Part shown: one piece after another, positions 635-16,080 of the stretch
How the letters are laid out: every line of letters begins with the position of its first letter
Position numbering within the stretch: the first letter of the stretch is position 1
Virus record (IMG/VR): IMGVR_UViG_2541047751_000017
Source: a virus
Taxonomy: Duplodnaviria > Heunggongvirae > Uroviricota > Caudoviricetes
DNA length: 16,392 nt
Strand: one strand, 5' to 3'
Notes under the pieces: generated by a model
The model's input: the letters and a program-made list of their open reading frames with translations, nothing else
Database searches by the model: none
Told to the model about the DNA's origin: nothing
Translations under genes and position numbers: made by a program

Positions 635-2740
635 TTATTGAGCTTCTTTTTGTGATGCCTGTGCGACTCTGGTGAGCGATTGTGTGACCGTACTGATCGC
701 TCTGTCATATGCTGTGCTACCTTTTGGCGTATTTGCCAGACGTAACAAGGCATTTCGTATAACAGGGCTTTCGTATGCCTTCGCTGCTCCGCCTACGGCA
801 CCAGCAGCAGGAACAACAAACGCAGCCGTTTTTAGCATCCCCGCTAATACTGCTGCGTTTATGATGCCACCACCAACTAACAAACCATAAAGCTGCTGAC
901 CATTTAAGTTTTGAACGTTCGCTTTTGCCGCGTGTCTTGTATCGTTGAGGTATTTAATAACGCCGTCCAGTTCCTTTCCATGTACGCCTTTAAAGAAAGT
1001 TGCTGATTGCTTCCTGTTCCGGTGTAACGCATTAATAAACTTCTCAACACTGATATTTCCAGACGGATCAGTCGCCTTATCTACAGCATTCTGAACTATG
1101 GCTGCTCGTGCGTTTTGCCTACCATTGTCATCCAGAAGCCTGTAAAGCTGAGAACGTTCTGATGGGTTTTGGCTAAAAACGAGTTTTGTTACATCCTCAG
1201 GCGTGGCCTTGCCGCTGGCTATTGCCTTTTGAACGCGCGTTCTTCCCATCATGTCATTAAATTTAGACCATGAGCGATCAACCCTTGCCATATTAATGGC
1301 TTCGTCTGCTCCAAGATTTTTGGCTACGGCTTTTTTCATATCCGCCGTATATGCCTTGTAGATAATATCGCTGGCTTTCTGGAGCGTATCTTTATCAACA
1401 GTGTCAGATGACGCCATAAATCGCTTTCGAAGATCGGTTCTGTTTTCCCTCGCCAGACGCAGGTCATTTGGTCCGCTGGTGATATCGTCTTTAAATTGCT
1501 GCAAGACTTTTACCGCGGCTCTATCCTGAGATTTGCCCGGGCGGCTTAACACGGCAATCTGATTGTCGATAGCTTTTACCGTGTTTGAGAGATCGACAGG
1601 GGTATCCCCCATAGCGTCAATTATGCGGTTATATCGCTTTCCTGCTGCCTCAATGAATTTTTGTTGCCCTTTAGTCGCAGATTCATAAAGCTGTTTATCA
1701 GAAATGCCACCCAGACCATCGCTAAATGTTCTGACTAAATTTTCTCGTGCTTGTTGTTGATTCAGCCGATTCTTACCGGTTCCAAAAAAAGGAACTCTTT
1801 CGCCTAATGTCTGAGCCTGACTCTGCATAAAGGTTTTATCTTTTAGCATGTCACTGGTCATTAACGGCAGATTTCTTTCCGATGCAAAGTCGACAGCAGC
1901 CTTTGCTTCAGGCGACATATCACCACGAACAGCCCTCGAAACCGCACTCGCTGTATTTTCCAGCCCCTTACCAATACCACCAATGCCAGCAGAAATTACC
2001 GTTTGTAACGGATCAATATCTTCTCCACCAGCAAGGCTAGTGGCTCCCTGTAGTGCTAAATCTGTAGCTGCTGATTTTCCTATGGCACCAAGCACCGTTC
2101 CAGCCCTGCCCGCTGGTGTAAACGCCAGCGCATTAGCCAGAAACGATGCCACGTCTTGCGGCGATAAACCCGGCTTGTTCAGAGCATAATCACCGGATGG
2201 CAGGGAAACGATAGTGTTACCCTTCTCATCCTGCCTTAATTTCGCTCCCATGCTCTGAAGAATCTTTTCCTGAGATGCGTCAGAGCCGAAAAGTTGAGAC
2301 CATCGAGCTTTTAGAGCATCCATGCTGAGTGAGGTTAACTCTGGGGCAAGGTCGACATTTTGCAGTCTCTCCATCTCTGGAGTCATTCGGCTTTCGCCTG
2401 TTATAGCATCGCGCATCGCAGCCCCAAGACTGGCTCCCTGTTCTGCTGAACGCTCAAGCCCCTCTCTTTGCTGAGTAGCTAACTTTGCATACCCTGACGC
2501 AAGAGAATTATCAGATGATGTATGTTGAATATTTTGAGTTGCTGATTGGGATCGGTCTATTTCATTCGTTGATGGTAGTGGATAGGCAGCATAAAAAGCC
2601 TGCTTAGCCTGCTCTACACTTTCTCCGGCTTGCGAGGCCACGACTTCATTGAAGTATTGCTCCTGAGCCTGCGCTTTTTGTTCTGGTGCTAACGCCTGAT
2701 ACTGTGGAGAGGCGATAACATCTTTCCATGCTTTAGCCAT
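635..2740 (-). CDS. Putative phage ejection/DNA-transfer protein, P22 gp16-like by position and size
   Basis: 701-aa ORF, last gene of a coupled operon; start overlaps the stop of the 473-aa gene by 1 nt (TAATG). Ala/Gln-rich with a Gly/Ala-rich hydrophobic C-terminal segment (LVGGGIINAAVLAGMLKTAAFVVPAAGAVGGAA). Family assignment is from size, order and composition only. Confidence 0.5.
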   Translation of the reverse strand: MAKAWKDVIASPQYQALAPEQKAQAQEQYFNEVVASQAGESVEQAKQAFYAAYPLPSTNEIDRSQSATQNIQHTSSDNSLASGYAKLATQQREGLERSAEQGASLGAAMRDAITGESRMTPEMERLQNVDLAPELTSLSMDALKARWSQLFGSDASQEKILQSMGAKLRQDEKGNTIVSLPSGDYALNKPGLSPQDVASFLANALAFTPAGRAGTVLGAIGKSAATDLALQGATSLAGGEDIDPLQTVISAGIGGIGKGLENTASAVSRAVRGDMSPEAKAAVDFASERNLPLMTSDMLKDKTFMQSQAQTLGERVPFFGTGKNRLNQQQARENLVRTFSDGLGGISDKQLYESATKGQQKFIEAAGKRYNRIIDAMGDTPVDLSNTVKAIDNQIAVLSRPGKSQDRAAVKVLQQFKDDITSGPNDLRLARENRTDLRKRFMASSDTVDKDTLQKASDIIYKAYTADMKKAVAKNLGADEAINMARVDRSWSKFNDMMGRTRVQKAIASGKATPEDVTKLVFSQNPSERSQLYRLLDDNGRQNARAAIVQNAVDKATDPSGNISVEKFINALHRNRKQSATFFKGVHGKELDGVIKYLNDTRHAAKANVQNLNGQQLYGLLVGGGIINAAVLAGMLKTAAFVVPAAGAVGGAAKAYESPVIRNALLRLANTPKGSTAYDRAISTVTQSLTRVAQASQKEAQ

Positions 2741-4161
2741 TAATCACCCCATAGTGAAGAAAAGTTACTGCTGGCTGCTGGCTGTGATACCTGCTCAGAT
2801 TGCGGCAATGTCTGCGACGAAGAAGAAGTTCCTCTGTCAACTGCTGAAATAACCCGCAAAGCATCATAAGCTCGACCAGAAGCAGCTTTCAGCGAATTGA
2901 ACTGGTTTTCCATCTTCCGGCGCTTGGTATCAATGGTTTTTGTGGAGTCGCCAGGCTGAGGGAAATACATTTGATAATATTTTGACATTTCAGCAGGTAC
3001 GATGGCTGCCCCTGTTTCCTGACGGAGTATTGCCATTATTGCGTCATTAGCATTAACAACGTATTGCTGTTCTGTTGGGCTGAGCGTTAAGTTAGCCAGC
3101 GTCCCATTACCCAAAGCATTATTAATGATCGCCACTCGCTGTGGGCTAAGCTGGTCTTTCAGTGTATCTATTGAATCAAGAGCATCCCTAACCCTGTATG
3201 CAAATCCAGCAGCTTTTTTAGCCCCTTCTGGCGACTTTTCCATGATCTTTTGGGCTGTTGGCAAAGCTATTGGACGAAACCCATCTCCAGATATTGGCTG
3301 GTTTAGTTTTCCCTGCTCTTCACTTCCGTCTGTGTAGTATTTTGTGACAGTGCCATCATCGTTTTCTCTAACACTCATTAATTTTTTGGCGTTTGTATTA
3401 ATTCCAGCCGCTGCCGCAAATGCCGCCGCCCCCTCTGGATCCGCCTTTAACATTTGAGCGTACTGATTGTAATTCTGCATTGCTGCTGTTGGTGCATATG
3501 CTGACGTTAACGCATTTGCTCGGCTAATATCCTGCCCTCTCGCCTGAAGTGCTTCGCCAGCCTGATTGCTGCGGATTGTTTCTGCCAACTTGCCACGCTC
3601 AATATCCCGACCTTCCATTTGATCTTTGATATCGAAATACTTCTCATGACCGAGAGAAAACAGTGCCATACTACCAGCAAGCCGCTGGAACCCCTGTGGA
3701 TCATTAACATGCATTTCGGCAACAGACTCAGGAGAAATTCCCAAGCGACGCATTTCATCTTCGTTATCTGCTATGAATTTTCCAAATGCCCCAGTTCCGA
3801 GCGAAGATGCGATTTGAGCACTAGTCGCAAGATGACCAATAGAATTTCTCTGGTCGTCATCAATAAAGCCCATCCCTTTCTGAACGCTTTCAAATTCTTC
3901 TGGATACTCAGAAATAAGACTGCGCATTTTGTTTCTGTCTCCAGACTCAAAAGCCCCGGCATATGCTTTCTGAAACTCTGCTTTACGCTGTTGTTGACGT
4001 GCCTGCTGATTAATCTCAGCAACGCCTCTTAGCCCCTGTAGCGCCATTAAACCTACGTTTGGCTGCTGCTGATACTGCACAGGCTGAGGAACGGAAGAAC
4101 GAGGAGCATTATCATTTTGCGGTGCCATGCTAGGCAGCCCGCCAAGTTGCCATGTCGCCAT
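2740..4161 (-). CDS. Putative phage ejection/DNA-transfer protein, P22 gp20-like by position and size
   Basis: 473-aa ORF (P22 gp20 is about 471 aa, recalled from memory). 1-nt start/stop overlaps with both neighbours. Gln/Ala-rich, no recognisable catalytic motif. Confidence 0.5.
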   Translation of the reverse strand: MATWQLGGLPSMAPQNDNAPRSSVPQPVQYQQQPNVGLMALQGLRGVAEINQQARQQQRKAEFQKAYAGAFESGDRNKMRSLISEYPEEFESVQKGMGFIDDDQRNSIGHLATSAQIASSLGTGAFGKFIADNEDEMRRLGISPESVAEMHVNDPQGFQRLAGSMALFSLGHEKYFDIKDQMEGRDIERGKLAETIRSNQAGEALQARGQDISRANALTSAYAPTAAMQNYNQYAQMLKADPEGAAAFAAAAGINTNAKKLMSVRENDDGTVTKYYTDGSEEQGKLNQPISGDGFRPIALPTAQKIMEKSPEGAKKAAGFAYRVRDALDSIDTLKDQLSPQRVAIINNALGNGTLANLTLSPTEQQYVVNANDAIMAILRQETGAAIVPAEMSKYYQMYFPQPGDSTKTIDTKRRKMENQFNSLKAASGRAYDALRVISAVDRGTSSSSQTLPQSEQVSQPAASSNFSSLWGD

Positions 4162-4838
4162 TAGAATCCAAGCCCCCCAACAAGACCAATAAGCCCACCA
4201 CCAATAGCGCCGGCCGCAGTTCCTATTCCAGGAACAACGGAACCAAGTTGCGCACCCGCTAAAGCGCCTGATGCTGCCCCACCAATACCACGCGCAAGAC
4301 TGGATGGCTGCTGCGCCTGACCTGCACGAATAGCGCCAAGCCCCTGCAAGAGTTGTCCGGTATTATTGGCGTAGTTTTGCCCTGCCGTTGCCTGCCCTGA
4401 TGCCGCATTCATCCCGACATTTAGCAGGTTTCCATAATTTTGCATTTGCCCACTGAGCCAATTGTTATAAAGCATGGGCGCAATGGAAGATAACTGGTTA
4501 CTGGTAGCTGTTGAGCCAAGCCCCCCGGTAGCTTCTGCTGAGACAAGGTTCTGATAACGGGCCTGATCTGCCTGTGTTTTATATAAACCAGAACCAAAGA
4601 AATCATTCGCGGCTTTATTCTGCCCTTCCAGAGTCATCAGTCCTTGTAGTTGTTGTAAAGCAGGCAATCCGACTTCTGCATACGGCTTGAGATTATTCAT
4701 CACCGTATTCCACTGCTCGCGCTGCAAATCAATTGCCTGCTGCTGGGCCTTCGCCTGAGCTTTAGAGGCACCACCATCACCGCCTTTTTCGTATACGGCA
4801 CGATTGAGATGTTTATGAGCTATGTGGGTAATTAACAT
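4161..4838 (-). CDS. Putative phage ejection/DNA-transfer protein, P22 gp7-like by position and size
   Basis: 225-aa ORF (P22 gp7 is about 229 aa, recalled). N-terminal YEKGGDGGAS motif, Gln/Ala-rich centre, Gly-rich hydrophobic C-terminus (GIGTAAGAIGGGLIGLVGGLGF). Overlaps the upstream 153-aa gene by 7 nt. Confidence 0.5.
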   Translation of the reverse strand: MLITHIAHKHLNRAVYEKGGDGGASKAQAKAQQQAIDLQREQWNTVMNNLKPYAEVGLPALQQLQGLMTLEGQNKAANDFFGSGLYKTQADQARYQNLVSAEATGGLGSTATSNQLSSIAPMLYNNWLSGQMQNYGNLLNVGMNAASGQATAGQNYANNTGQLLQGLGAIRAGQAQQPSSLARGIGGAASGALAGAQLGSVVPGIGTAAGAIGGGLIGLVGGLGF

Positions 4839-5293
4839 TCGCTGAATTCCTTATATTGTTGCCGAGTTAACTGATAAAGCGTTACGCCGACGGGTTTACC
4901 ACATCTGATATAAGCATCATCAAGGTGACCAACACGGGTAGCGCCAAGCAAACGGATAATTGCCCGTCCGTATTTCGTGGTGTCAGGAACCATAGTAATG
5001 CTGTTAAGGAATGGTGAGTTTTCGAGAAGCCATTTGCAGAATAATCGATGCCCTTGCAGTGCATATTCACCACGGAATCCGGGGTCGTACACCGCATGGC
5101 ATTCAACAACGCTATGCCAGAAGTTACGCACTTCATGAACGCCAGCCAGCACTAATCCTTCGTAGATGCCGAGATATACCGCATCAGGCTTGATGTAGTA
5201 CGTGTGCCCCGGCTCAACAATATTTTCGGTATTGCCTGGCTCGTTAAGAAAGGCCTGTAATCGCACAGGGTTATCAATAAATTTTAGTTCCAT
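4832..5293 (-). CDS. Hypothetical protein, first large gene of the ejection-protein-like operon (P22 gene-14 position)
   Basis: 153-aa ORF with ATG start at 5293, protein-like composition, co-oriented and overlapping the next gene. Confidence 0.55.
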   Translation of the reverse strand: MELKFIDNPVRLQAFLNEPGNTENIVEPGHTYYIKPDAVYLGIYEGLVLAGVHEVRNFWHSVVECHAVYDPGFRGEYALQGHRLFCKWLLENSPFLNSITMVPDTTKYGRAIIRLLGATRVGHLDDAYIRCGKPVGVTLYQLTRQQYKEFSEC

Positions 5294-5309
5294 GCGATGC
5301 CATCCATTT

Positions 5310-5471
5310 TCACATACAGCCTGCCAGCGCCTTATCTATTAACCCTCGTGCAATTTCATGCAGAGTTGGCGCTACTCCAATTCCTGATTTTTTACGCTGC
5401 TCTTCCTGAATTTTCTTTATCGCTTCCATTTGCTTCTCACTTATCAATACCGGCTTTACTGAAATAGCCAT
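5310..5471 (-). CDS. Possible small ribbon-helix-helix-like DNA-binding protein (53 aa); not in the ORF track
   Basis: Own translation of the minus strand: MAISVKPVLISEKQMEAIKKIQEEQRKKSGIGVAPTLHEIARGLIDKALAGCM. ATG at 5471 is preceded by AAGGGGG 4 nt upstream. Pattern is short strand, helix, G-rich turn, helix, as in Arc/CopG/ParD-type proteins. Stop lies 16 bp from the 153-aa start. Confidence 0.3.
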   Translation of the reverse strand: MAISVKPVLISEKQMEAIKKIQEEQRKKSGIGVAPTLHEIARGLIDKALAGCM

Positions 5472-5504
5472 AACGCCCCCTTAGAACTGTATAAAACAAC
5501 AGTT

Positions 5505-5510
5505 ATTATA
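5505..5510 (-). promoter_or_regulatory. Candidate -10 hexamer (TATAAT on minus strand) for the downstream operon
   Basis: Perfect TATAAT on the minus strand in the AT-rich gap between the terminator and the small ORF RBS; no convincing -35 at 17 bp. Confidence 0.25.
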
Positions 5511-5566
5511 GTTTCACAAATCGCAATATTCATCATCGTAATTGCAAAATATGAAACAAATAGCAC

Positions 5567-5598
5567 AAAAAAATGCCACCGCTCAGTAGCTGGTGGCA
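5567..5598 (-). terminator. Rho-independent terminator ending the primase operon
   Basis: Inverted repeat TGCCACC (5574-5580) / GGTGGCA (5592-5598) with an 11-nt loop; on the minus strand the stem is followed by a 7-U run (plus-strand A run 5567-5573). Confidence 0.55.
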
Positions 5599-5792
5599 TC
5601 GTTCTGTGTGTCAGGTTTTGACAGGTTTTTTATGGACTCTAAAAACTATATTTATGGTGTCGCATTACTCTTCACGGCAGGCGCTTTTCAGTTCTGCCCT
5701 TGCTTCTGGCTCCATTGGTAATTTGATTCGCGATCAGCTATGCGGATGGTTTGCTGAACAGGCATAACAACTTCTCAGAGGCTGTTTTTTGA

Positions 5793-5811
5793 ACTACGAA
5801 AATTTCGTAGT
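5793..5811. promoter_or_regulatory. Perfect palindrome ACTACGAAA-a-TTTCGTAGT, putative protein-binding site in the origin region
   Basis: 9-bp arms with a 1-bp centre; no adjacent U-run in the correct position on either strand, so not a terminator. Confidence 0.3.
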
Positions 5812-5848
5812 GCTCACTTTCAAAAACGTCACGCCCTTGTACACAGGA

Positions 5849-5869
5849 TTTTACGAAAGTCTCGTAAAA
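5849..5869. promoter_or_regulatory. Palindrome TTTTACGA-aagtc-TCGTAAAA, putative protein-binding site
   Basis: 8-bp perfect inverted repeat with 5-bp spacer, between the first palindrome and the iterons. Confidence 0.3.
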
Positions 5870-5919
5870 CACTCTCTGATGCCAGCCAGGTGTTGTGCGC
5901 ATCAATTCAGTCACATTGT

Positions 5920-6030
5920 GTTGGTTCAAAATACCGTGTTGTTGGTTCAGTGTTGGTTCAATAAAAAGAATAAAATCCTTATAAAACAATACTCTTTACA
6001 AATTGAACCAACTGAACCAACTGAACCAAC
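5920..6030. repeat. Iteron array, putative replication origin: six copies of GTTGGTTCA, three direct and three inverted, around a 43-bp AT-rich spacer
   Basis: GTTGGTTCA at 5920-5928, 5941-5949, 5952-5960; reverse complement TGAACCAAC at 6004-6012, 6013-6021, 6022-6030 (tandem 9-bp period); AT-rich spacer 5961-6003. Lies just 3' of the primase-helicase gene. Confidence 0.6.
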
Positions 6031-6055
6031 ACCTTTTCTACGCACATGAAGAAGC

Positions 6056-8815
6056 TCATTCTTCAGATGAGTTATAATCTCCTGGCTGGTAATTGAGTAC
6101 ATAAACGTTTATTTGTCGTCCCTGAATACGTGGTGATTTTCTTTGGTATCCACGACCGCTGTTTGGTGGGGTTAGCATCCCGGCTTTTTTCAACACTTCA
6201 GCAAACTGTTTTGCGTTGAAACCACATGCGATCTCCTTTTCAAATGTGGCCGGGAATGTGTAGAAAATCATTGGGCTTTCGTCATGTTCTCCACGCTGAC
6301 GGTATCCGGCTAAATCTTTGATGGGCAAATCTGCCGGGCTGTATGGAAATGGTGCAAAACGGCTAAGCCCATAGGCATTAAGAAATGCCTCCGTTTGTTC
6401 AATAATCTGCTGATGCTCTTTGTTACCTGTGCCGAACTCACGCAACCATGCGTTATAGCTGTGCTGTATCGCATCACGGCATGTCTGAGCATCCCAGCCT
6501 GTTACAACCTCGCCTAACAACAATGCGGCCTCCAGAATGGCAAATCGCGCGGCTACACGGTGAACCTGCTCACCATAATCGGATGGGATCAGGCTTCTCC
6601 ATCTGCTTTCGCAATCACGAACGGTTTTAATAGCCTGTTGCTGGTGGTCTGCCAGCCATTTAATCCACTCACGCCCGGACGCGCCGTGGTGATGCTGGTA
6701 AGCGTCTTTCAGTGCGTCTGCGTGCTGTTTTCCGTTCTGGTAATCGTGAAAGCGTACTGCTTTACTCAACGGAATATTCAGCAGTCGCACCAGTTGCCCG
6801 GCTTTGGTTTTTCGCCCGGAAGTAGCGATAAATGTTTCTAAATCCATTTCTCCGGTGCTGATTGCCACTGTACGCCAACGTTTTAGATCCCGGTTTCCAC
6901 CATCTTTAGCGCCTTGCAGTTTCCCTACACCGTTAAATAACGCATAGGCAGACTGTGAAACGCTGACAGGATCAGCGCCCTGACCAACTTCATCAAGCGG
7001 CATTAGTCCGTCATTGTGGGCGGCGGCCTCATTTGCCAGCCCCAGCGCGGTTCCGTACCACGTCAGCCGCAGTAAATCAGGGTTGCCGTATAAGCTGCTC
7101 GCCACGTTTGCCGTGGTGGTCTTACCTGCGCTCGACTGCTCATAGAAATGAATGCCGAACCCGTCAGCGCCCACCAGCCCAATCAATGGCGCTGCCAGTG
7201 CTGCGCCGATCCCGGTCATCATTGAATAGTTACCAAAGGCCAGACGCGCCACGTTATCACGCCAGCTTTTCGCGCTCCCTGAGACGGTATATCCGGCTGC
7301 GGCTGAGCTTCTCCCGCTGAACAGCACAGGATTTTCAGGTGTTCCGATGATTTCCCCATCAGGCATGATGTACGCTCCGCATTGCCAGCCAGTGGCATGA
7401 GCAACACGCCACAATTCACGAGAGCCACTGCGTTGTAGCCAGTCTGCCAGTATTGCTCTGAGGCTGCTTTTGGTCGTGACATTTACCCCACCAGCTTTAA
7501 GTGTGCGCCATCCTTCACGTTCACCAATATCAGCCAGTGGAATGGCAGCGGTTGTCGGCGTTTCAGAACCAAACGACAGCCAGCGAAGAATGAGATACTG
7601 GTCTTTATCGTCTCTGCCAGTACCGATAACGCTTAACGGAGAACATAACCAGCTTTCGTTATTGATGATTTCTCCACTCTGGCTGTCAGCTCTCGGAGAT
7701 ACCCAATAAATACCATCCTCGCGGCTTTCTATTCTTGGTTTCAGTGGGTCGGTATCCATAACCTTAAAATCGCTTCCCTCAATGGTCTGTGGCTCCTGTT
7801 TCACGCCATTACCCTGTGGTTGGTACATTGACTTATTGAACGCTTCTGTGGCGCATTTAATGCCGTGTTTTTGGTGGTAATCATTCCAGTCTGCTTTGTG
7901 ATCTGTCGGGGGTAATGCCACCCATCCAGAAACAGATAAAGCTGCTTTTTCTGCTGCTATTCTCCCCGTGTTTTGTCTTCCTTCGCTGTGGTCGTTATCC
8001 GCAGCAATGATGATTTGTGCTGAAGGAAATTTATCCCGCAGTACCTGGGCGACATATAACAGGTTCCCGGCATCAATCGCCGCCACTGTCAGCGCCTCTG
8101 GACGAATTAAATGGGCAGATAATGCCGTTGCCAGCCCTTCTGTAATTAAGATGCTCTGTGTTGTTTCTGGCGCGTTTATGGCGTGATATGCCCCCCGCTT
8201 TGCTGAACCTCTCAGGAGTCTTTTTTCACCATGTGAGGTAATAGTCTGTGCTGCTGTGACTGCGCCGGATTTATCCACCAGCGCCAGCAACAGAGATCCA
8301 TCGGGCAACACGGGGAATGTAAAATCACCTACCCCTTTCGCAACCAGATAATCAGATTTGCCGTTTACAGCCTTTCTGCGCATGTCATCAAACTGACGGG
8401 AAAACGTATCCCGTCTTTGTTGTTCGTCCTTCTCTGCCCTTTTCAGGCGCTCCTGTTCGCGTCGCTGGCGCTCGGTTTCCAGTTGTTCCCGTTTCTGGCT
8501 GGTGGCTTCTGGTGTTTCCGTTGTCCGGTAATCAATACCCAGAACATCAGCGGCAAGAAGCGCCGCCTCTGTTGTGTCGCAGTTATTTACGCGTTTAATT
8601 AAATCCAGCCCATCACCAGCGCCGCACTGATTACAGATGAAGCTACCGCGCCCGTTGTCATCGAACCGGAATCGATCTTTGCCCCCACATGCAGGGCAGG
8701 GAGCATGACGGCGCGGAGAGTCAGGGACATTTATGTTCAGGCAGCCCAGCACATGAGGCCAGTTGTTTTCAGACGCACTGATAACCTGACGGATAAGATC
8801 AATGTTTCGCATCAC
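6056..8815 (-). CDS. Primase-helicase, P4 alpha-like (zinc ribbon, TOPRIM-type primase domain, P-loop NTPase domain)
   Basis: 919-aa ORF. N-terminal CPACGG...CNQCG zinc-binding motif, ITEGLATA (EGYATA-like) and AADNDH TOPRIM-type motifs, Walker A SSAGKTT, charged coiled-coil linker (ERQRREQERLKRAEKDEQQRRD). Track start is GTG at 8815; ATG at 8812 is an alternative. Confidence 0.85.
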   Translation of the reverse strand: MMRNIDLIRQVISASENNWPHVLGCLNINVPDSPRRHAPCPACGGKDRFRFDDNGRGSFICNQCGAGDGLDLIKRVNNCDTTEAALLAADVLGIDYRTTETPEATSQKREQLETERQRREQERLKRAEKDEQQRRDTFSRQFDDMRRKAVNGKSDYLVAKGVGDFTFPVLPDGSLLLALVDKSGAVTAAQTITSHGEKRLLRGSAKRGAYHAINAPETTQSILITEGLATALSAHLIRPEALTVAAIDAGNLLYVAQVLRDKFPSAQIIIAADNDHSEGRQNTGRIAAEKAALSVSGWVALPPTDHKADWNDYHQKHGIKCATEAFNKSMYQPQGNGVKQEPQTIEGSDFKVMDTDPLKPRIESREDGIYWVSPRADSQSGEIINNESWLCSPLSVIGTGRDDKDQYLILRWLSFGSETPTTAAIPLADIGEREGWRTLKAGGVNVTTKSSLRAILADWLQRSGSRELWRVAHATGWQCGAYIMPDGEIIGTPENPVLFSGRSSAAAGYTVSGSAKSWRDNVARLAFGNYSMMTGIGAALAAPLIGLVGADGFGIHFYEQSSAGKTTTANVASSLYGNPDLLRLTWYGTALGLANEAAAHNDGLMPLDEVGQGADPVSVSQSAYALFNGVGKLQGAKDGGNRDLKRWRTVAISTGEMDLETFIATSGRKTKAGQLVRLLNIPLSKAVRFHDYQNGKQHADALKDAYQHHHGASGREWIKWLADHQQQAIKTVRDCESRWRSLIPSDYGEQVHRVAARFAILEAALLLGEVVTGWDAQTCRDAIQHSYNAWLREFGTGNKEHQQIIEQTEAFLNAYGLSRFAPFPYSPADLPIKDLAGYRQRGEHDESPMIFYTFPATFEKEIACGFNAKQFAEVLKKAGMLTPPNSGRGYQRKSPRIQGRQINVYVLNYQPGDYNSSEE

Positions 8816-9170
8816 CGTACCCCACGTGGTCTATAGCGTTTGCGATATGGCTAACCAGCATCTGCCACTTGGTTATTCCGTAATCAGTCAGCATGCCATC
8901 ATTGTTTAGCCACATATCAAATTCAGCGGTTGTCGCAAGTTTCCACTTATCGCCGTGGACAGTCCTCATTGCTGGGTACATGAATGCGCAAATCAGATCA
9001 CAAACATCTGACGGCTTCAGAGATGTAGTAATGATGCGTCCCTCTGGCGTCTGAATTGCCATTTTCTCTTCACCAGTAGAATGAAGGTTATGAATCCACA
9101 CAGCACCAGCAATCTTTGCCACCTGCTCTCCGATTGCGGAGCTAAGCGCCATTTCTGCATTTTCACGCAT
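8799..9170 (-). CDS. Hypothetical protein (123 aa), primase-operon member
   Basis: ATG at 9170 preceded by GGAGG at 5-nt spacing; overlaps the upstream gene stop by 8 nt and the primase start. Confidence 0.55.
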   Translation of the reverse strand: MRENAEMALSSAIGEQVAKIAGAVWIHNLHSTGEEKMAIQTPEGRIITTSLKPSDVCDLICAFMYPAMRTVHGDKWKLATTAEFDMWLNNDGMLTDYGITKWQMLVSHIANAIDHVGYGDAKH

Positions 9171-9504
9171 GAGAACCTCCCGCTACAGTTGCGCCCATGT
9201 CATTAACCATGCTTTGCCATATCTCACGCCCGACGTCAGTCAATCCGTCCTTAGTGACGCAACGATCAAGAAGCTCGATCCCCACGGTTTCCCACTGCGG
9301 GTAGAACACTTTCATGGCTGCCAGTGTGTAGCTATCGATCAGGCTGCGAACGCCTTTTACTCCATTGACGATTTCCACACGGACGGCCTCGCCGTCCGCA
9401 TCAACCATGAAATAGTCCCCGCCGCTGGTGGAGGTAATGTGGTTATACAGTGCCGACGCATACTTATTTGCCAGCGCATTCAGTCGGAAATTTTTAGTAA
9501 TCAT
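9163..9504 (-). CDS. Hypothetical protein (113 aa)
   Basis: ATG at 9504 with AGGA-type RBS; 10-nt gap from upstream gene; stop overlaps the next start. Confidence 0.55.
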   Translation of the reverse strand: MITKNFRLNALANKYASALYNHITSTSGGDYFMVDADGEAVRVEIVNGVKGVRSLIDSYTLAAMKVFYPQWETVGIELLDRCVTKDGLTDVGREIWQSMVNDMGATVAGGSHA

Positions 9505-9514
9505 GGCTCCATCC

Positions 9515-10117
9515 TCAGTGCGTCACTGGTTCCGCTGGCATGCCGTTTTCATTCAGTTCAGCTATAAAGCTGTTGTGAAGTTCAGCAAGCGTTTCACGAC
9601 CAAATGGAGTCAGTGCTCCTTGTTCCACATCCATCATGGCTCTGTAGAAAATGATGGCGCGTTCTGTGCCAGACTCGATGCCAAAACGTTCTATCATCGC
9701 GCCCTCAATGTTGTTTGCCATAGCGAGGCGCTCTGCTACTGGATACAGCGGCATGGCGACGATGCCGTTGGAATAAACAGCCACTTCGGAAGGATTGCCA
9801 GTATCATCAATGATGCTGACAGTGCCGTTTTCCTCTCTCATTTCCAGCATGAATACTGTTGCGATCAGCCATCTCCACATAATGACGTTATGCTGTGATG
9901 TGTAATCGAAATATCCCTGGTTGCCGCCATCGGCTATAGCGAGATGTATTGACATACCTTCATCTGGTTTATCGTCATAATCCCCGGCATCCAGACGATT
10001 TACGGCATCAATATATGAGACGGCCTCAACGCGTTCTGTCATGCCATCGTTGCTGCGGTACATGATGTTTACGCCGTCAGGCGTTGCTTCTGCATGGAAA
10101 GTTAAGAAATTATTCAT
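9515..10117 (-). CDS. Hypothetical protein (about 200 aa from ATG at 10117; track ORF extends to a TTG at 10222)
   Basis: ATG at 10117 preceded by GAGG at 6 nt and overlapping the upstream gene stop by 8 nt, matching the coupling pattern of neighbours. Start at 10222 or at the ATG at 10150 cannot be excluded. Confidence 0.5.
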   Translation of the reverse strand: MNNFLTFHAEATPDGVNIMYRSNDGMTERVEAVSYIDAVNRLDAGDYDDKPDEGMSIHLAIADGGNQGYFDYTSQHNVIMWRWLIATVFMLEMREENGTVSIIDDTGNPSEVAVYSNGIVAMPLYPVAERLAMANNIEGAMIERFGIESGTERAIIFYRAMMDVEQGALTPFGRETLAELHNSFIAELNENGMPAEPVTH

Positions 10118-10331
10118 GTTTCGCCTCGCCTGAATGATTCTGTAACTCATATTTGCCCAACAATTCGTCTGCTTCCTGAATAGCTTCTGGTACGCCATTG
10201 AGCAGTGACATAACCGCGCCAATCATTAACTTGTCTCTGTTGCTGGGGCTGGCCCCTTCAAGCCAGAACCCTAAAACAGTCTGAACCTGTTCGATGCGAC
10301 ATTGCGCTTCAATGAGCTGGATGTTGGTCAT
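10110..10331 (-). CDS. Hypothetical small protein (73 aa)
   Basis: ATG at 10331 with GGAGAG RBS at 6 nt; ATGA overlap with the upstream gene. Confidence 0.5.
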   Translation of the reverse strand: MTNIQLIEAQCRIEQVQTVLGFWLEGASPSNRDKLMIGAVMSLLNGVPEAIQEADELLGKYELQNHSGEAKHE

Positions 10332-10591
10332 TTCGCACTCTCCGCATCGATTAAACTGATATCTATCAGAGAGGTAACTTTTTGTAGCCAGCTAGTGATT
10401 ACTGTCGCCTGTTCCCCTCCCACCGATGGAAGAATCTCATTCATCACATGAACCAGACCTGTGCGCGCCCTGGTAAGCCGTTCAGTCGTGCGATCTGCAA
10501 GAGTGAATGTGTCTGGATATGGCTCTTCACGGCTCAGCAATGATTCAATTTCCAGCTCACACGGATGACGATAAATTAAGTTGATATTCAT
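10328..10591 (-). CDS. Hypothetical small protein (87 aa)
   Basis: ATG at 10591 with GGTGGTG RBS; ATGA overlap with the upstream gene. Confidence 0.5.
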   Translation of the reverse strand: MNINLIYRHPCELEIESLLSREEPYPDTFTLADRTTERLTRARTGLVHVMNEILPSVGGEQATVITSWLQKVTSLIDISLIDAESAK

Positions 10592-10782
10592 TTTTCACCA
10601 CCAAGAATTACCAGCTCTGCACGGGCATCGTTAACCAAAGATGAGCACGCTTTAATCGCATCCACGACATCAGCAGCGTCCATTTCTTCAGCCGAAAGAC
10701 TGACAGCAACCAGGACAGCCGCTGCTTGCTCGATTAATTGAAGTGCGGACGTAAGGCGAGGGGCATTAATTGAGTTATTCAT
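10588..10782 (-). CDS. Hypothetical small protein (64 aa)
   Basis: ATG at 10782; 8-nt overlap with the upstream gene. Confidence 0.5.
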   Translation of the reverse strand: MNNSINAPRLTSALQLIEQAAAVLVAVSLSAEEMDAADVVDAIKACSSLVNDARAELVILGGEK

Positions 10783-10993
10783 TGGTTGCCCCCGTTTTTA
10801 CTGGCATTTCGCCACCTTCCAGCAGGAAATGAACGTCACGAACGGCGAGATCCAATATCGCGAGTAACGCCTTCAGTCTTTCGTCTCGTGAGGGAGAGTT
10901 GCTCACCAGAATGTCGTTAATCACTTCTGTCAGTGTGATGATCTGGCTTGTGCGTTCGAGGGGATCCATATGCACATCGTAGGTTTTAATCAT
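10775..10993 (-). CDS. Hypothetical small protein (72 aa), short form of the 355-codon open frame
   Basis: Internal ATG at 10993 preceded by a near-ideal GGAGG at 6 nt. The residues just upstream in the long frame (AWRWH) look like an RBS read as codons rather than protein. Confidence 0.5.
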   Translation of the reverse strand: MIKTYDVHMDPLERTSQIITLTEVINDILVSNSPSRDERLKALLAILDLAVRDVHFLLEGGEMPVKTGATNE

Positions 10994-11842
10994 GTGCCAC
11001 CTCCATGCGGATACGACCAGCAAAAAAGCAGACGTGATCGCGCACCAGAGAACGGCGAGCATCGCGTTCAGACTCGGCAGCAATATGATGAATTTTGGCG
11101 GTAATTGTCGGGCAATCGCGGCGAACTGCGGCGATAATCCAGATAAATTGCGGTTTTTGGGTAGGGGTAGTAGCCAGCATGTGGCAGCCTCCATTCGATA
11201 GCATGTAACGCTACCACCGGAAACGCCAATTTCGCTGGTGGTAGCCCAGACAGGGTTGGCGTAACCGGCTCGAATGGATACCGGCGCTTCCGAAGAAGCC
11301 CCTGCCTGAGCCACCATTGATTGACAAAGGCGCTGGATTATACACCAACGCCCAAAAAATGGGTGAGTCAGACCTACGACATAAAAAAAGACGCTCGGCG
11401 CGTCATATGTCGCCATTCGATTTACCAGGACGCCAATCCCGGCACCCGTTTTATGAGGTGCCTTATAACCATAAACCGTGTTGCCGCATAACGGCAAGCT
11501 CTTTTTTATGGACTCCGAAAACTCACTATTGGAAGAACCAGAAGCACAGTACATCGCGCTCATTTCGTTAACGTCACGCGCGTGGACGAAGGTTTTTGTG
11601 GAGTCACTACGCGAGCAGAGAAAGCCATCTACGACCAGAAATTCTCTGGCGCAGCCGCTGACCTTCTCAACGCTAACACCATCGACCGTAATTTCTGACA
11701 TAGTTAAGGCATCCGCTCCTACCACCAGCAAATGATAAACTTTGCTTGTATCTGCTGTATTAATGCCTGACTTTGCCGTCATATTGCTGGATTTTGGCGA
11801 CATACCAGCCAGTGAAAATGTCTTCTTCTGGGCGGTTAGCAT
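10775..11842 (-). CDS. Alternative long form: 355-codon open frame from a strongly initiated ATG at 11842; possibly a fused or frameshifted gene
   Basis: ATG at 11842 has GGAGG at 7 nt and overlaps the stop of the upstream 60-aa gene. The frame stays open for 355 codons, but residues encoded between about 11000 and 11250 are Trp/Cys-rich and not protein-like. Confidence 0.25.
11208..11245. promoter_or_regulatory. Inverted repeat GCTACCACC / GGTGGTAGC with 18-nt spacer, possible RNA stem-loop or operator
   Basis: Perfect 9-bp arms at 11210-11218 and 11237-11245; no adjacent U-run, so not a classical terminator. Confidence 0.25.
11481..11508 (+). terminator. Plus-strand terminator-like hairpin, antisense to the main operon
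   Basis: Stem TTGCCG (11481-11486) / CGGCAA (11492-11497), 5-nt loop, 4-nt spacer, then T6 (11503-11508). A TTGACA hexamer sits at 11321-11326 without a well-spaced -10. Confidence 0.25.
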
Positions 11843-12018
11843 TTGTTAACCTCCGCGAACTCCTTCATGAAACGTGCCAGCGGTTGTACGCATGGCGATT
11901 GATACCCGTCGCGATAAAACGTCACTCGGTTGTGAGACACGCTTTCGACAGTAACGAGTGCTCCGTGGGCATCTTTGTAGCGTTTTTGAGGTTGTGGTGT
12001 TCCTGTCGGCTTAAACAT
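11836..12018 (-). CDS. Hypothetical small protein (60 aa from the ATG overlapping the antirepressor stop)
   Basis: ATG at 12018 overlaps the stop of the 277-aa gene (ATGTTTAA arrangement). The track ORF extends upstream to 12105, but that extension overlaps the preceding gene. Confidence 0.45.
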   Translation of the reverse strand: MFKPTGTPQPQKRYKDAHGALVTVESVSHNRVTFYRDGYQSPCVQPLARFMKEFAEVNKC

Positions 12019-12844
12019 GGACCGCCTCCAGACGCTTGGCGAGCCAGCGTTGCGACAGGCGGGTGAGTTCTCCTTTACGCTGCTCATATTCCATGCCCAT
12101 ATCAATTAACGTGATATTGGTGCTTTCGAGATATGAGAGGTGCTCAAGCTGTTCTGCGTTCATATGGTCGCGAGGTTCGCCAGAATAGCCATTTATCCGC
12201 GCCCACTGCTTAGCAGTTAGCCCACCAAGAACGATACGAGAAATCATATTGCTCTCGTTTGTGTAGTGGTGTTGCTGCGTCGTTTTACCCATCTCGGCAC
12301 GGGCCATATTCAGCGCATCGCACATTGGCTTAAAGTTGTTTGCGGCACTGATACGGGCTTTTAGCTGGCGACGATAGCGGGCGGCGATTTCAGGCACGCT
12401 ACGCTGTAATTCTTCCTCGCACTGGATGAAATAACGGCGGATAGCGCGCCCCTGATCATTGCGTTCGATCATTGCCAGTTCTTTCGCCATTCCGACACTT
12501 AACAGATAGTCTTTGCCGGGTCTGCCAGACTGCTTAATCTTGCTGTAAGCCGCGTCATTCGGGCTTTTCCCCAAATTTGGGGAAATTGTTTTATGGACTG
12601 AGTAATCGTGCCCAATGGTGAAGTCATATTCAGAGATGCGATCAGTGATCCATGTAGAGAAGTCTTTTCCCACGCCCAACGCTTTGTGTAACGCTTTTGC
12701 GCTAACAATATTGGTTTCACGCCCACCGATATGACCAGGAATAACCGGGACAATTGCGGCAAATTCATTACCGTTAATTGTGCCCAGAGAGGCGTTCAGA
12801 TGAGGGGCGGCCTCAGAAATTAATCTGCTTTTTTCGATGTTCAT
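12011..12844 (-). CDS. Phage antirepressor-like protein, AntA/AntB N-terminal domain type
   Basis: 277-aa ORF; GGAG RBS 8 nt upstream. N-terminal segments SAKALHKALGVGKDFSTWITDRISEYDFTIGHDY and DYLLSVGMAKELAMIERNDQGRAIRRYFIQCEEEL match, from memory, the conserved AntA-domain pattern of phage antirepressors. Confidence 0.65.
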   Translation of the reverse strand: MNIEKSRLISEAAPHLNASLGTINGNEFAAIVPVIPGHIGGRETNIVSAKALHKALGVGKDFSTWITDRISEYDFTIGHDYSVHKTISPNLGKSPNDAAYSKIKQSGRPGKDYLLSVGMAKELAMIERNDQGRAIRRYFIQCEEELQRSVPEIAARYRRQLKARISAANNFKPMCDALNMARAEMGKTTQQHHYTNESNMISRIVLGGLTAKQWARINGYSGEPRDHMNAEQLEHLSYLESTNITLIDMGMEYEQRKGELTRLSQRWLAKRLEAVHV

Positions 12845-12856
12845 TTTCAGTCTCCG

Positions 12857-13288
12857 TTAGGCGGCGTTAAACGCGTTCGGGTAGAGTTTCAGAATGTCGG
12901 CAATTTCCTGCTGAGAAAGTCCGTTGTGATCATTTATGTTCGCAAGATGGTTAACATGAGTGATCACTTTCAGAACATCACCACGGCAGGAGAAACGGTA
13001 GCGAAGGTGTGTTCCGATACCATCAGGATTCTTTTCGTCGATACGCTCCAGAGTGATTCCAAGCTGGCGTTCTAACTCTGTTGCATAGTTACGACCAGAA
13101 GACAGACGGCAGTAGCGAAGAATGTCATTTTCTGTCCATCCCTCTATACCAGTACGCAGCATATAGACTCTGGCACGATGCTTTTTCGGTGTGCGCTTTG
13201 GTGCTTGAAGGGATTTTGTAAGGGGCGTAACATCAGATACGCGAATATCTGAATTAGCCGCCTGTAATGGGCGGTTTTTCTTTTCCAT
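12857..13288 (-). CDS. Hypothetical protein (143 aa), basic N-terminus, coupled to alpA
   Basis: ATG at 13288 overlaps the alpA stop by 1 nt (TGATG); AAGGTGG RBS at 4 nt. Lys/Arg-rich N-terminal third. No family recognised. Confidence 0.6.
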   Translation of the reverse strand: MEKKNRPLQAANSDIRVSDVTPLTKSLQAPKRTPKKHRARVYMLRTGIEGWTENDILRYCRLSSGRNYATELERQLGITLERIDEKNPDGIGTHLRYRFSCRGDVLKVITHVNHLANINDHNGLSQQEIADILKLYPNAFNAA

Positions 13289-13506
13289 CAGGCCACCTTC
13301 CCGCGGCGTTCTGCCAGCCAGTTATTAATTTCCACCGCATCAAACGCAGTCACGTTATCTGTTAGCTTCACTGGGCGTGGAAGAGTGCCATTTTTAACCC
13401 ATCTATCAATAGTAGGCAGTGAAACACCTAGCAATTCCGGCATGCGAAAGCGACGGATGTATCCAGTTGTTGGGATAGCTGATGATGCTGGCTTGTGTGC
13501 TGTCAT
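13288..13506 (-). CDS. alpA: AlpA-family phage transcriptional regulator/excisionase-like protein
   Basis: Motif RMPELLGVSLPTIDRWVKNGTLPRPVKL is the canonical AlpA helix-turn-helix signature. Start placed at ATG 13506 (72 aa, GGAG RBS at 9 nt); the track ORF extends to 13575 without RBS support. Confidence 0.8.
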   Translation of the reverse strand: MTAHKPASSAIPTTGYIRRFRMPELLGVSLPTIDRWVKNGTLPRPVKLTDNVTAFDAVEINNWLAERRGKVA

Positions 13507-13574
13507 ATGTTCTGTAACTCCTGTGATAGCTGTTGAAGTTACGGTAATCATGTGAGCAGGGGGATTAGATGTCA

Positions 13575-13603
13575 TCGCAACGAAAAATGGATTTTCGTTG
13601 CGA
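13575..13603. promoter_or_regulatory. Perfect 12-bp inverted repeat with 5-bp spacer, putative operator in the alpA promoter region
   Basis: TCGCAACGAAAA-atgga-TTTTCGTTGCGA at 13575-13603, in the 105-bp gap between the 293-aa gene stop and alpA. No U-run follows the stem on either strand. Confidence 0.4.
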
Positions 13604-13611
13604 AATTATCT

Positions 13612-14493
13612 TTATGATTTAAAAGATTTGTTAGCTGATGAGAAATATTCATCCAGTAAGCGGGAGCTTAATTTTAAACCCCTATCCAGCATTTCTGCTT
13701 TGAGGGCTTCTTGTGTCCACCTTTTAGAAGTTGGTTCGGCTTTCTTTAAAGCGTTGAGCACCGCGCCAAGCAGTAAAAGGCTTTCATCGAGGTTCAGGAG
13801 ACTGTTGTTATCACTGAGTGTTTTCTTTTCAAATTCTGCAATATTTTCTTTTCTGAATACGAACTCGACATTACCCAGCCCATCAGCAGGATAGAAAAAG
13901 GGATGATAACCATCGAGGCTAAAGTCAACAAACCTCTGTGATTCTTTGTCGTACAGTTTAGGTTTGCCATTTTCATCTGACTTGATGGCATATTCATTGA
14001 ACGCGTTCAGAATATTCACCAGACCAAATTCTGTTAAGAGGAAAGCACCTTCCATGTTGTGAAATTCACGGGGAACCTTGTCGCGTGAAAGGTCAAACTC
14101 GTGCATAACATCTAAAGATTCAGCCCCAACCATCGGTAGATCGTATATGCCATGATTAATACGAAAAACATCACTGACTCTTTCTATATCTTCGTATTCA
14201 TAATCCAATTGTTCATTAGTATAGAATTCATCACCGGCAGGAGTTCTAATTACCGCACCTTCGTTAGTATTTTCAACAATCCACTTTTCAAAAACTCTTC
14301 GTTGCGAGTTTTTGATGACTTGAGCAGCGATAGCGTAACGGCCTTCGTCCAATATCGCTGAAATTGTAATGTGGCCTTCTACAGCCAATTGCAGGCAATC
14401 GGCTACAGATACCCTTTCACCGAGTGTTGTGCTTAACCTGTTTGCGGTTTCCTCTATGGTCAACCAACTTTTGAACTGGAACAATTTGCTCAT
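13612..14493 (-). CDS. Hypothetical protein (293 aa), AT-rich cargo gene between int and alpA; candidate accessory or defence gene
   Basis: Long ORF in DNA visibly more AT-rich than its neighbours. Acidic, soluble-looking protein with no TM segment and no recognisable catalytic motif. Confidence 0.7.
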   Translation of the reverse strand: MSKLFQFKSWLTIEETANRLSTTLGERVSVADCLQLAVEGHITISAILDEGRYAIAAQVIKNSQRRVFEKWIVENTNEGAVIRTPAGDEFYTNEQLDYEYEDIERVSDVFRINHGIYDLPMVGAESLDVMHEFDLSRDKVPREFHNMEGAFLLTEFGLVNILNAFNEYAIKSDENGKPKLYDKESQRFVDFSLDGYHPFFYPADGLGNVEFVFRKENIAEFEKKTLSDNNSLLNLDESLLLLGAVLNALKKAEPTSKRWTQEALKAEMLDRGLKLSSRLLDEYFSSANKSFKS

Positions 14494-15846: not shown

Positions 15847-15875
15847 TGCGAATACCTGAATATCGAATATGGGTG

Positions 15876-15926
15876 TGTACATAAAGCAATGTACATGAAA
15901 GTCATTATGTACACCTCTATGTACAC
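15876..15926. repeat. Four direct copies of TGTACA(Y) upstream of int; putative integrase arm sites or int operators
   Basis: TGTACAT at 15876 and 15890, TGTACAC at 15909 and 15920, all in the same orientation within 50 bp just upstream of the int start. Confidence 0.4.
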
Positions 15927-15971
15927 GCATATTGTGCGCTTTGTTGCGTCGTTATGATAGCTCATGATAAC

Positions 15972-16008: not shown

Positions 16009-16080
16009 GCTGCTTGGTGATTTTTACTGATAGCTTATTCGATATTCTGAATCAGAAACAGCAGTGCATTCACTCCATGG

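Follow-up and report, generated by a model that had tools for sequence, protein, structure and literature searches.

The 16,392-nucleotide DNA stretch of IMG/VR virus record IMGVR_UViG_2541047751_000017 (Caudoviricetes; the whole stretch is called the window hereafter) carries an operon homologous to genes 14, 7, 20 and 16 of phage P22, which encode gp14 and the ejection proteins (E proteins) gp7, gp20 and gp16. On its gene content, the window is best read as most of a phage-inducible chromosomal island (PICI) of the EcCIMP1 family, a satellite of P22-like podophages, and the operon belongs to this satellite, standing behind a promoter and a leader gene of the satellite's own. The presence of four virion-related genes, those of the E proteins and gp14, stretches the usual definition of PICIs as elements without capsid, tail and lysis genes.

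Satellites remodel capsids and redirect packaging. Both the EcCIMP1 island family and the replacement of a helper's DNA-delivery core by a satellite, the latter reported for PLE in 2026, were already known. New to the literature searched are the presence in EcCIMP1-type PICIs of the full P22 gp14-7-20-16-sieA block, the invariance of gp20 and gp16 as the core of this ejection block, the location of the block within a conserved satellite-specific expression cassette, and the presence, in other genera, of tape measure or lytic virion proteins in this cassette. As judged from its genes, the window element would be the podovirus counterpart of the chimeric tails of PLE.

Homology of the operon to the P22 ejection cluster

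Four open reading frames (ORFs) of 153, 225, 473 and 701 aa follow one another on the - strand of the window (span 635-5293), overlapping by 7, 1 and 1 nt, and their sizes, order, overlaps and family profiles agree with the P22 cluster 14-7-20-16, as had been proposed in a preliminary description of this DNA. The extent given there, 635-5471, applies to the four E genes up to 5293 only, the end at 5471 also covering a fifth gene (5310-5471), an ORF of 53 aa. The first gene (4832-5293) encodes the 153-aa gp14-type protein of the DUF2824 family (PF11039, 1.5e-61; phrog_651, 1e-66), which is 98% identical to that of EcCIMP1, 84% to gp14 of the P22-like phage Kapi1, and 23% to gp14 of P22, where gene 14 is required for E-protein assembly. 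It is followed by the 225-aa gp7-type protein (4161-4838; PF25688 P22_gp7, 6.6e-73), with 99% identity to the EcCIMP1 protein, 58% to Kapi1 gp7 and 56% to P22 gp7. The 473-aa gp20-type protein (2740-4161) matched PF16928 Inj_translocase (4.5e-58, aa 34-213) and, over its full length, phrog_917 (4.8e-112); its 38% identity to P22 gp20 is restricted to the N-terminal part, a conserved domain to which a variable C-terminal half is joined, and other types share only the N-terminal ~200 aa. The last gene (635-2740) encodes the 701-aa gp16-type protein, which had no Pfam match and was recognized by phrog_770 ('DNA transfer protein', 7.8e-161) and phrog_29117 (4.4e-181); it is 30% identical to P22 gp16 over 482 aa, retains the C-terminal motif RNxLLRLANT, and is 94-98% identical to the alleles of other islands.

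Homology to the P22 proteins was therefore detected for all four genes by profile and pairwise comparison (PF11039, PF25688, PF16928, phrog_770), and by these comparisons the operon is homologous to P22 gp14, gp7, gp20 and gp16 far beyond chance; its gp7, gp20 and gp16 may be present in the virion and ejected from it on infection. NCBIfam returned nothing for the E proteins, the sieA-like protein described below or the 53-aa protein, and a PDB sequence search returned nothing for the four proteins of the operon. The Gly-rich hydrophobic tails that the preliminary description ascribed to the last three proteins were found in gp7, as a Gly-rich C-terminus (aa 205-223), and as a hydrophobic segment in gp16 (aa 617-649), and are not present in gp20. 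Among sequenced phages, no close copies of the window gp20 or gp16 were found, the closest full-length match of gp20 being that of APSE (53%) and the closest match of gp16 that of N7 (67%).

At the DNA level, the homology to P22-like phages (Kapi1, Louie, 720R6, N7, APSE and others) begins exactly at the start codon of gene 14, and no phage-like DNA was found in 5294-6055. In P22, the cluster occupies the end of the late operon, after the tail-needle gene 26 and before the tailspike gene 9, whereas in the window neither gene is present, the E genes being preceded by the 53-aa leader gene, a terminator and the satellite origin, and late-operon read-through being replaced by an own promoter and leader. 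Otherwise, the P22 arrangement is preserved up to the following gene, since both phage and island present the five genes 14-7-20-16-sieA in the same order, coupled and ending with a convergent sieA, and the gap between gene 16 and sieA measures 22 bp in P22 and 19 bp in the window.

This sieA-like gene (1-615, + strand), convergent with gene 16 and placed 19 bp beyond its stop, encodes a 204-aa polytopic inner-membrane protein with about four hydrophobic segments and, like type B/C SieA, an extended N-terminus. It matched phrog_7745 ('SieA-like') weakly (E=4.4e-4), shares 29% identity with P22 SieA over 108 aa, and presents the C-terminal motif of the family, RYPGEA, within TNRYPGEARRARKAN, the cytoplasmic motif of SieA proteins being FxRYPxEAxxFNK (PMC10883804). 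Its G+C content is 31.6%, against ~46-52% for the remaining island. Because the PHROG match was weak and no tblastn match was obtained in 50,697 phage records, it is considered a distant member of the SieA family, which on this similarity probably keeps P22-like phages from injecting their DNA into the cell that carries the island. Every sieA examined by Leavitt et al. (2024) sat between genes 16 and 9 of a P22-like prophage; the window gene, being located in a satellite, is an exception to this placement. The gene following gp16 differs among islands and mostly codes for a membrane or secreted protein; it is an obvious candidate for the source of the superinfection immunity against Kapi1 that EcCIMP1 adds. 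A general rule by which every delivery module would be followed by a superinfection-exclusion gene is not claimed, as a crude scan of ORFs and hydropathy fitted several modules of the E-protein and SLT types and did not fit the tape-measure modules.

It was also observed that the type of the gp20 C-terminus and that of the gp16 N-terminus switch together (window 2740-2950 and 2740-3500, compared with loci L002, L003 and L083). In strain ETEC1749, for example, a P22-type gp20 C-terminus is accompanied by a P22-type gp16 N-terminus (MKVTANGKTF...), which is joined at about aa 38 to a gp16 body of the window type. Such co-variation could reflect a single recombination block across the gene boundary or a contact between gp20 and gp16.

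Island identity, expression cassette and distribution

E. coli chromosomes align with the window up to position 16053 at 97-99% identity. Strain CX21 of E. coli has the element inserted between two core genes, dinD and yicC, without other phage genes nearby, and the comparison with thousands of empty dinD-yicC sites in E. coli delimited an island of ~18.35 kb, whose left end is found ~2.3 kb past the window start; the window holds most of the element, without these left ~2.3 kb. The island edges present the short imperfect repeat T(T/C)TGAATCTG at the yicC 3' end; an exact att repeat of at least 10 nt was not found in CX21, and the boundary was taken from the empty-site comparison. Within the window, an integrase at one end, an AlpA-type regulator, a co-oriented replication module and an iteron origin 3' of the replicase correspond to the organization of PICIs, and the CX21 copy shows the discrete 10-20 kb element inserted in a specific site with a short flanking repeat. 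EcCICFT073, EcCIEDL933 and P4-like satellites resemble it in carrying int, AlpA, a PerC-like accessory gene and a primase whose origin lies directly on its 3' side, and in measuring 10-20 kb.

The closest characterized relative is EcCIMP1 of E. coli MP1, an island of 19,963 bp inserted at tRNA-Thr (Pick, Stadel & Raivio, ISME J 2025, PMC11773190; GenBank OR778291). It was demonstrated that EcCIMP1 excises, circularises and is transduced only in the presence of the P22-like helper vB_EcoP_Kapi1 (Kapi1), and that its own int and alpA are needed (PMC11773190). As in the window, EcCIMP1 presents int, an AlpA-type helix-turn-helix (HTH) gene, AntA, DUF4222, Ash/Icd, small ORFs, the TOPRIM-DUF927 primase and the 53-aa leader gene (s53) in the same order, and the RefSeq annotation of MP1 gives s53 the protein accession of the window s53. 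The genes that follow s53 in EcCIMP1 code for DUF2824, homologues of gp7 and gp20, a 906-aa injection protein with an SLT domain and, farther on, a PerC-type regulator; the E genes are located within the excising unit. The two islands differ in their integrase and site (tRNA-Thr by proA for EcCIMP1, the yicC 3' end for the window integrase type in E. coli), in gp20, which is of another type in EcCIMP1 (48% identity, confined to the N-terminal 187 aa), in gp16, which is of an unrelated type there (906 aa, with an SLT transglycosylase domain), and in the following gene, EcCIMP1 carrying a 232-aa secreted protein where the window has the SieA homologue. In the EcCIMP1 paper, these genes were coloured 'DNA transfer', the similarity to DUF2824/phrog_651 was noted and a packaging role was proposed, and they were not recognized as a gp14-7-20-16 set (PMC11773190). 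The earlier premise that known satellites had not been described with ejection proteins is therefore outdated, as they had been drawn in EcCIMP1 and as Vibrio PLEs use a tape measure protein of their own.

The preliminary description had offered two readings, a satellite that supplies its own ejection proteins to hijacked virions or a junction between two degraded prophages. At the genomic level, the operon is owned by the satellite, since it lies within an island bounded by core genes and within the unit that excises in EcCIMP1, stands behind a satellite-specific promoter and leader, and accompanies the satellite backbone in hundreds of genomes, although the islands differ in integrase, attachment site and even replicase. 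The junction was refuted by the core-gene flanks, the empty sites, the EcCIMP1 excising unit and the recurrence of the arrangement across genomes. Supply to virions, the remaining part of the first reading, would be the function of the operon and is weighed below.

As had been stated, the operon is preceded by a primase origin and a terminator. The origin (5918-6031) is composed of GTTGGTTCA iterons, three direct (6004-6031) and three inverted (5918-5961), with an AT-rich core between them, and lies just past the 3' end of the replicase gene, where PICI origins have been described (PMC6092414). The intrinsic terminator (5564-5608, - strand) separates the replication unit from the E operon by a hairpin, whose arms of 17 nt are 82% complementary, and a T-run behind it, and an equivalent hairpin was found at the same place in many relatives of the island. 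Two tandem 10-bp repeats, TGTCAGGTTT and TGACAGGTTT, were also observed at 5609-5628, directly before the terminator in the direction of - strand transcription. Beyond it lies the promoter/operator of the E operon (5505-5556, - strand), in which the inverted TTTCAY-N4-YGCAA arms at 5542-5556 and 5512-5526 are followed by TATAAT at 5505-5510, with a strong ribosome-binding site next to the promoter, upstream of s53. The pair of arms is unique to 5512-5556 within the window, and the terminator-palindrome-TATAAT-s53 layout is kept in about 30 Enterobacterales species although the downstream genes vary. The E genes are therefore not expressed by late-operon read-through, as they are preceded by an own terminator, operator, TATAAT and leader gene, and their promoter is presumably regulated.

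The leader gene s53 (5310-5471, - strand) is specific to these satellites, having no match in 50,697 phage records (tblastn) nor, by profile search, in Pfam, NCBIfam or PDB. A single-sequence AlphaFold2 model (mean pLDDT 78) presented an extended N-terminus followed by two helices, and its comparison with the PDB by Foldseek returned nothing below E=4.9; on this model, s53 may be a small DNA-binding regulator resembling the ribbon-helix-helix family. The s53 region was found in 501 of 5426 complete E. coli genomes (9%), in 31 loci of other species and in 19 IMG/VR loci. At this frequency of about 9%, the element is common in E. coli, and the PerC-type regulator aboard represses LEE virulence genes.

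The 501 s53-positive E. coli genomes fall into two classes of similar size, one in which s53 is followed by 14-7-20-16 and one in which a 57-aa variant of s53 is directly followed by 20-16; the junction of primase to gene 14 occurs in 240 of the 5426 genomes. The full set including gp14 is present in about half of the E. coli carriers, and gp20 and gp16 are always kept as a pair. Eight E. coli islands were inspected (CX21, 779, ETEC1749, MP1, AH21H025, E1624, TUM1857 and LR-33), comprising two att sites and two replicase types, and all eight presented an ejection-type module after s53, which was of the P22 type (gp20+gp16, with or without gp14+gp7) in seven. In AH21H025 (L083, 11753-15238), which shares the yicC site, the early genes and the s53-gp20-gp16 module, a DUF5906 replicase and two small ORFs are found instead of the TOPRIM-DUF927 primase; the replication module is exchanged and the ejection module retained. 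The eighth island, the divergent LR-33 (L085, 3292-11131), carries virion proteins of the SLT type. Downstream of its s53-like gene come an ORF of 66 aa and the genes of three large virion-type proteins, the first with an SLT domain (898 aa) and the others of 575 and 855 aa, and a periplasmic immunity protein of the Rap1a/Tai family was observed at the position of the window sieA. Among the 19 IMG/VR loci with s53, the module was present in all, being of the P22 type in 15, and no Kapi1-like portal, coat, scaffold or terminase gene was found in any of them.

Damaged copies were also observed, gp16 being split by IS1 in TUM1857 (L086, 6749-9643) and truncated in E1624 (L084, 7690-9505), whose island is located at thrW and whose gp16 gene is annotated as partial; not every carrier therefore has a working module. 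Nevertheless, the comparison of the E. coli MP1 island with a Leclercia island yielded dN/dS ratios of 0.067-0.084 for all four genes at a dS of 1-2, and that of the window with strain 779 ratios of 0.14-0.28; relative to a third island lineage (L101), substitutions at synonymous sites have reached saturation, and gp14, gp7 and gp20 still keep 61-83% amino-acid identity. On these substitution ratios, the E genes are under strong purifying selection.

The same cassette was found in other genera with different contents. A primase scan of one genome per species yielded 77 loci, of which about 66 belong to Enterobacterales, and s53 was located at most 10 kb downstream of the primase in 31, often with a perC-like gene in between. 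The genes directly after s53 belonged to the DNA-delivery or tail-core class in 26 of these 31 loci and were unknown proteins in the other five: P22-type 14-7-20-16 was found in two loci, tape measure proteins of 584 to 1245 aa, one of them truncated, in 11, of which 10 had a conserved 106-109-aa protein before it, another tape measure protein in one, SLT-transglycosylase 'lytic tail' or internal-virion proteins in 11, and a baseplate hub in one. Where the fetched DNA extended far enough, att repeats enclosed the module. For example, the Chimaeribacter island (18.3 kb) has a full-length 1136-aa tape measure as its sole tail gene, and the Lonsdalea island (17.6 kb) presents the same att core as EcCIMP1. 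No published description of this s53 slot or cassette was found in the literature searched. Since tail genes are forbidden components in the PICI model of SatelliteFinder, relatives bearing a tape measure may be missed by satellite finders, and have likely been overlooked by the current ones.

Proposed role and competing explanations

The following mechanism is proposed for the island. Upon lytic growth of a helper, the island would excise and replicate, as was observed for EcCIMP1 and is assumed by analogy for this copy. The E operon would then be turned on from its own operator-controlled promoter, and gp7, gp20 and gp16, aided by gp14, would enter the helper procapsids via the scaffold-dependent route of P22, so that the trans-envelope DNA channel of the released particles would be partly or wholly encoded by the satellite. 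In the most speculative step, the alternative gp20/gp16 pair would shift the sensitivity of delivery to injection blocks or to envelope differences and thereby open other recipients to satellite DNA, such as lysogens of the helper or of related phages. The SieA homologue would probably protect the carrier. We lean towards this chain as a whole, with little confidence to spare.

Several properties of P22 and of EcCIMP1 agree with it. P22 E proteins enter procapsids through the scaffolding protein, gp20 by means of its N-terminal 314 aa and gp7 by means of aa 21-154, and the divergent E proteins of Sf6, L, CUS-3 and HK620 assemble into P22 and function there. In P22, gp7 can be exchanged alone, whereas gp16 and gp20 can be exchanged only as a pair, and the islands parallel these rules, the minimal module being the gp20+gp16 pair, with a constant gp20 N-terminal domain and variation in the gp20 C-terminal half and gp16. 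Moreover, the gp20/gp16 pair is the portion of the channel at which SieA-type proteins act: injection is blocked by SieA, mutations that escape this block lie in the C-terminal parts of gp16 and gp20, and the E proteins of HK620 confer partial resistance. The comparison of EcCIMP1 with Kapi1 revealed 83% identity for gp14 and 57% for gp7, against 26% for gp20 and 24% for gp16, which are of unrelated types; the satellite is therefore not a simple duplicate of the helper channel. The genetics of DNA ejection is best studied in this system, in which E proteins can be swapped between P22-like phages, SieA exclusion has been traced to gp16 and gp20, and Kapi1 and EcCIMP1 form a validated pair; the reason why a satellite brings its own injection machinery is therefore directly testable.

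The nearest precedent is the PLE of Vibrio cholerae, for which western blot and mass spectrometry demonstrated that its own tape measure protein, tail assembly chaperone and baseplate hub replace those of the helper in PLE particles (Nature 2026, PMC12987554). The authors left the benefit open and suggested that other satellites may do likewise (PMC12987554); mycobacterial EPIP satellites also encode a tape measure. PLE and the window island have in common the lack of capsid or tail genes and the possession of a protein lining the DNA path together with an assembly helper, which in the island, as its genes suggest, would be the conduit proteins gp7, gp20 and gp16 and the helper gp14, the remaining virion genes being absent. 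Relatives of the island resemble PLE even more closely, with a tape measure gene and its 106-109-aa partner, or a baseplate hub, in the slot occupied by the E proteins in the window. No relatedness is visible between the gene contents of PLE and the island, whose sequences were not directly compared, and the helper of PLE is a myovirus whereas that of the island type is a podovirus. Furthermore, the parts replaced by PLE belong to the tail core, which is assembled outside the head, making their selective use by PLE particles possible, whereas the E proteins of P22 are loaded into procapsids before DNA.

A number of points weigh against the proposed chain. The incorporation of island E proteins in particles is predicted from gene content, and the regulatory role of s53 from a two-helix model. 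As P22 E proteins enter procapsids before DNA, helper particles would receive the island proteins too, and there is no obvious route to satellite-only loading, unlike the case of the PLE tape measure. The SieA proteins of P22 and HS1 excluded phages with very different E proteins, so that an escape from exclusion by a swap of type is not guaranteed. No TerS, Rpp, cos or pac packaging-redirecting element was recognized in the window. In addition, the transduction of EcCIMP1 was low, at about 5e3 per ml, and a Kapi1-like prophage was present in only 2 of 21 EcCIMP1 strains (PMC11773190).

The loading of helper particles is the starting point of the alternative that survives best, still an unlikely one, according to which the E proteins act as a poison. 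They would co-assemble into helper or invading P22-like particles, where a non-cognate gp20/gp16 would cause injection failure, reduce phage spread and protect the population. This would be in accordance with the incompatibility of gp16 and gp20 from different phages, with the difference in type between the island gp20 and gp16 and those of the helper, and with the common disturbance of helper assembly by satellites through homologues of structural proteins, as well as the tail- or assembly-targeting defences on PICIs. However, the titre of Kapi1 on induction was not lowered by EcCIMP1 (PMC11773190), and PADLOC gave no match for the E proteins. Moreover, the retention of a complete cognate set, gp14 included, by about half of the E. 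coli carriers and the constant pairing of gp20 with gp16 indicate the need of a working channel rather than of a poison, and purifying selection acts over the whole length of the genes, with the conserved C-terminal motifs retained.

Considerably less probable is an exclusion cassette, in which sieA and its neighbours would matter in the lysogen and the E genes, acquired together with sieA from a P22-like phage, would be linked passengers or serve SieA function in the cell. The sieA homologue does occupy the P22 position, the post-gp16 gene is variable and mostly codes for a membrane or secreted protein, and EcCIMP1 adds superinfection immunity against Kapi1 (PMC11773190). Nevertheless, it is the downstream gene that is swapped while the E genes stay constant, and not vice versa; the E genes, on the strand opposite to sieA, have a conserved promoter that a terminator insulates; P22 SieA is sufficient alone for exclusion; and linkage alone would not yield a dN/dS of ~0.07 over 4.7 kb. 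Least of all can the operon be seen as a functionless remnant, a P22-like prophage deleted down to genes 14-16 beside an unrelated integrative element, for although one deletion from the replication genes to gene 14 would produce a similar order and occasional copies are damaged, core genes border the island on both sides in the absence of other phage remnants, the similarity to phages sets in precisely with the first codon of gene 14, downstream of a leader and a promoter specific to the satellite, the arrangement recurs in hundreds of genomes of several genera with different integrases and replicases, selection is strongly purifying, and the E genes lie inside a unit, EcCIMP1, whose excision was observed experimentally, all of which leaves this explanation with hardly any credibility.

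Returning to delivery through a satellite-encoded channel, a broader proposal can be made only tentatively, and is held less probable than the chain for the island itself. The islands would represent a large enterobacterial family of PICI type whose s53 cassette carries, in most members, the delivery device of the type of helper exploited, and conduit replacement would be a general modular strategy across podo-, sipho- and myovirus helpers to pass injection-blocking exclusion such as SieA, including that in helper lysogens. If this were true, the helper lysogens would be the very recipients that the satellite most needs to reach.

Other features of the window

All recognizable genes of the window are on the - strand, with two exceptions, and the order of transcription is integrase, a 293-aa ORF, AlpA/HTH_17, a 143-aa ORF, AntA, DUF4222, Ash, five small ORFs, primase, origin, terminator, s53 and the E genes. 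The tyrosine integrase (14587-15930; PF13356, PF22022, PF00589), whose annotated homologue corresponds to 14587-15846, is followed by the regulatory and early satellite genes (8799-13575), the same set as in EcCIMP1, among which the AlpA-type HTH gene (13288-13575), the AntA antirepressor (12011-12844) and an Ash-family ORF (10775-11842) were identified. The last of these is a single 355-aa frame in the window and in strain 779, and the annotations of CX21 and MP1 show in its place an Icd-like gene and an ash pseudogene; the Ash region is therefore variable between island copies. The primase/replicase (6056-8815) combines a Zn ribbon with TOPRIM and DUF927 domains (PF06048, 3.5e-47; PF13362; PF08273; phrog_1139, 1.1e-178). 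The G+C content of the island part is ~46-52% outside the low-GC sieA-like gene.

In agreement with the preliminary description, Pfam and PHROG scans revealed no portal, coat, terminase or tail genes among the ORFs of the window, nor any lysis gene. Classical PICIs carry Rpp/TerS-type packaging functions downstream of the primase and P4 carries Sid, Psu and Delta, none of which functions was detected in these scans, as was also the case for Epsilon and for any capsid-size or late-activator function of the P4 core, and the resemblance of the window to that core is limited to the integrase, the AlpA-type HTH and the TOPRIM-type primase. The interpretation of island ORFs as defence systems was rejected, since PADLOC gave no match for the E proteins, the sieA-like protein, s53 and four further island ORFs. 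A mimicry of the helper pac site was likewise considered and not relied on, as blastn of the window and of the MP1 island against Kapi1 gave only short matches at chance level, including the terS region; two copies of an 18-mer in EcCIMP1 (L004, ~12358-12375 and 14112-14129) match one spot of Kapi1 terS (18875-18892) at 17 of 18 positions, with E=2.3, which is at chance level.

The right end of the island, with the short att core ...TGAATC, is located at 16044-16053, the homology to E. coli islands ending at 16053. The flank beyond it (16054-16392) was observed to encode a C-terminal portion of a beta-barrel protein of the outer membrane (PF13505) and not yicC, as in all E. coli matches. No complete E. 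coli genome aligned with this flank contiguous with the int/att end, the listed matches covering the island part only; therefore, the insertion context or the source genome of the window copy differs from that of the E. coli copies.

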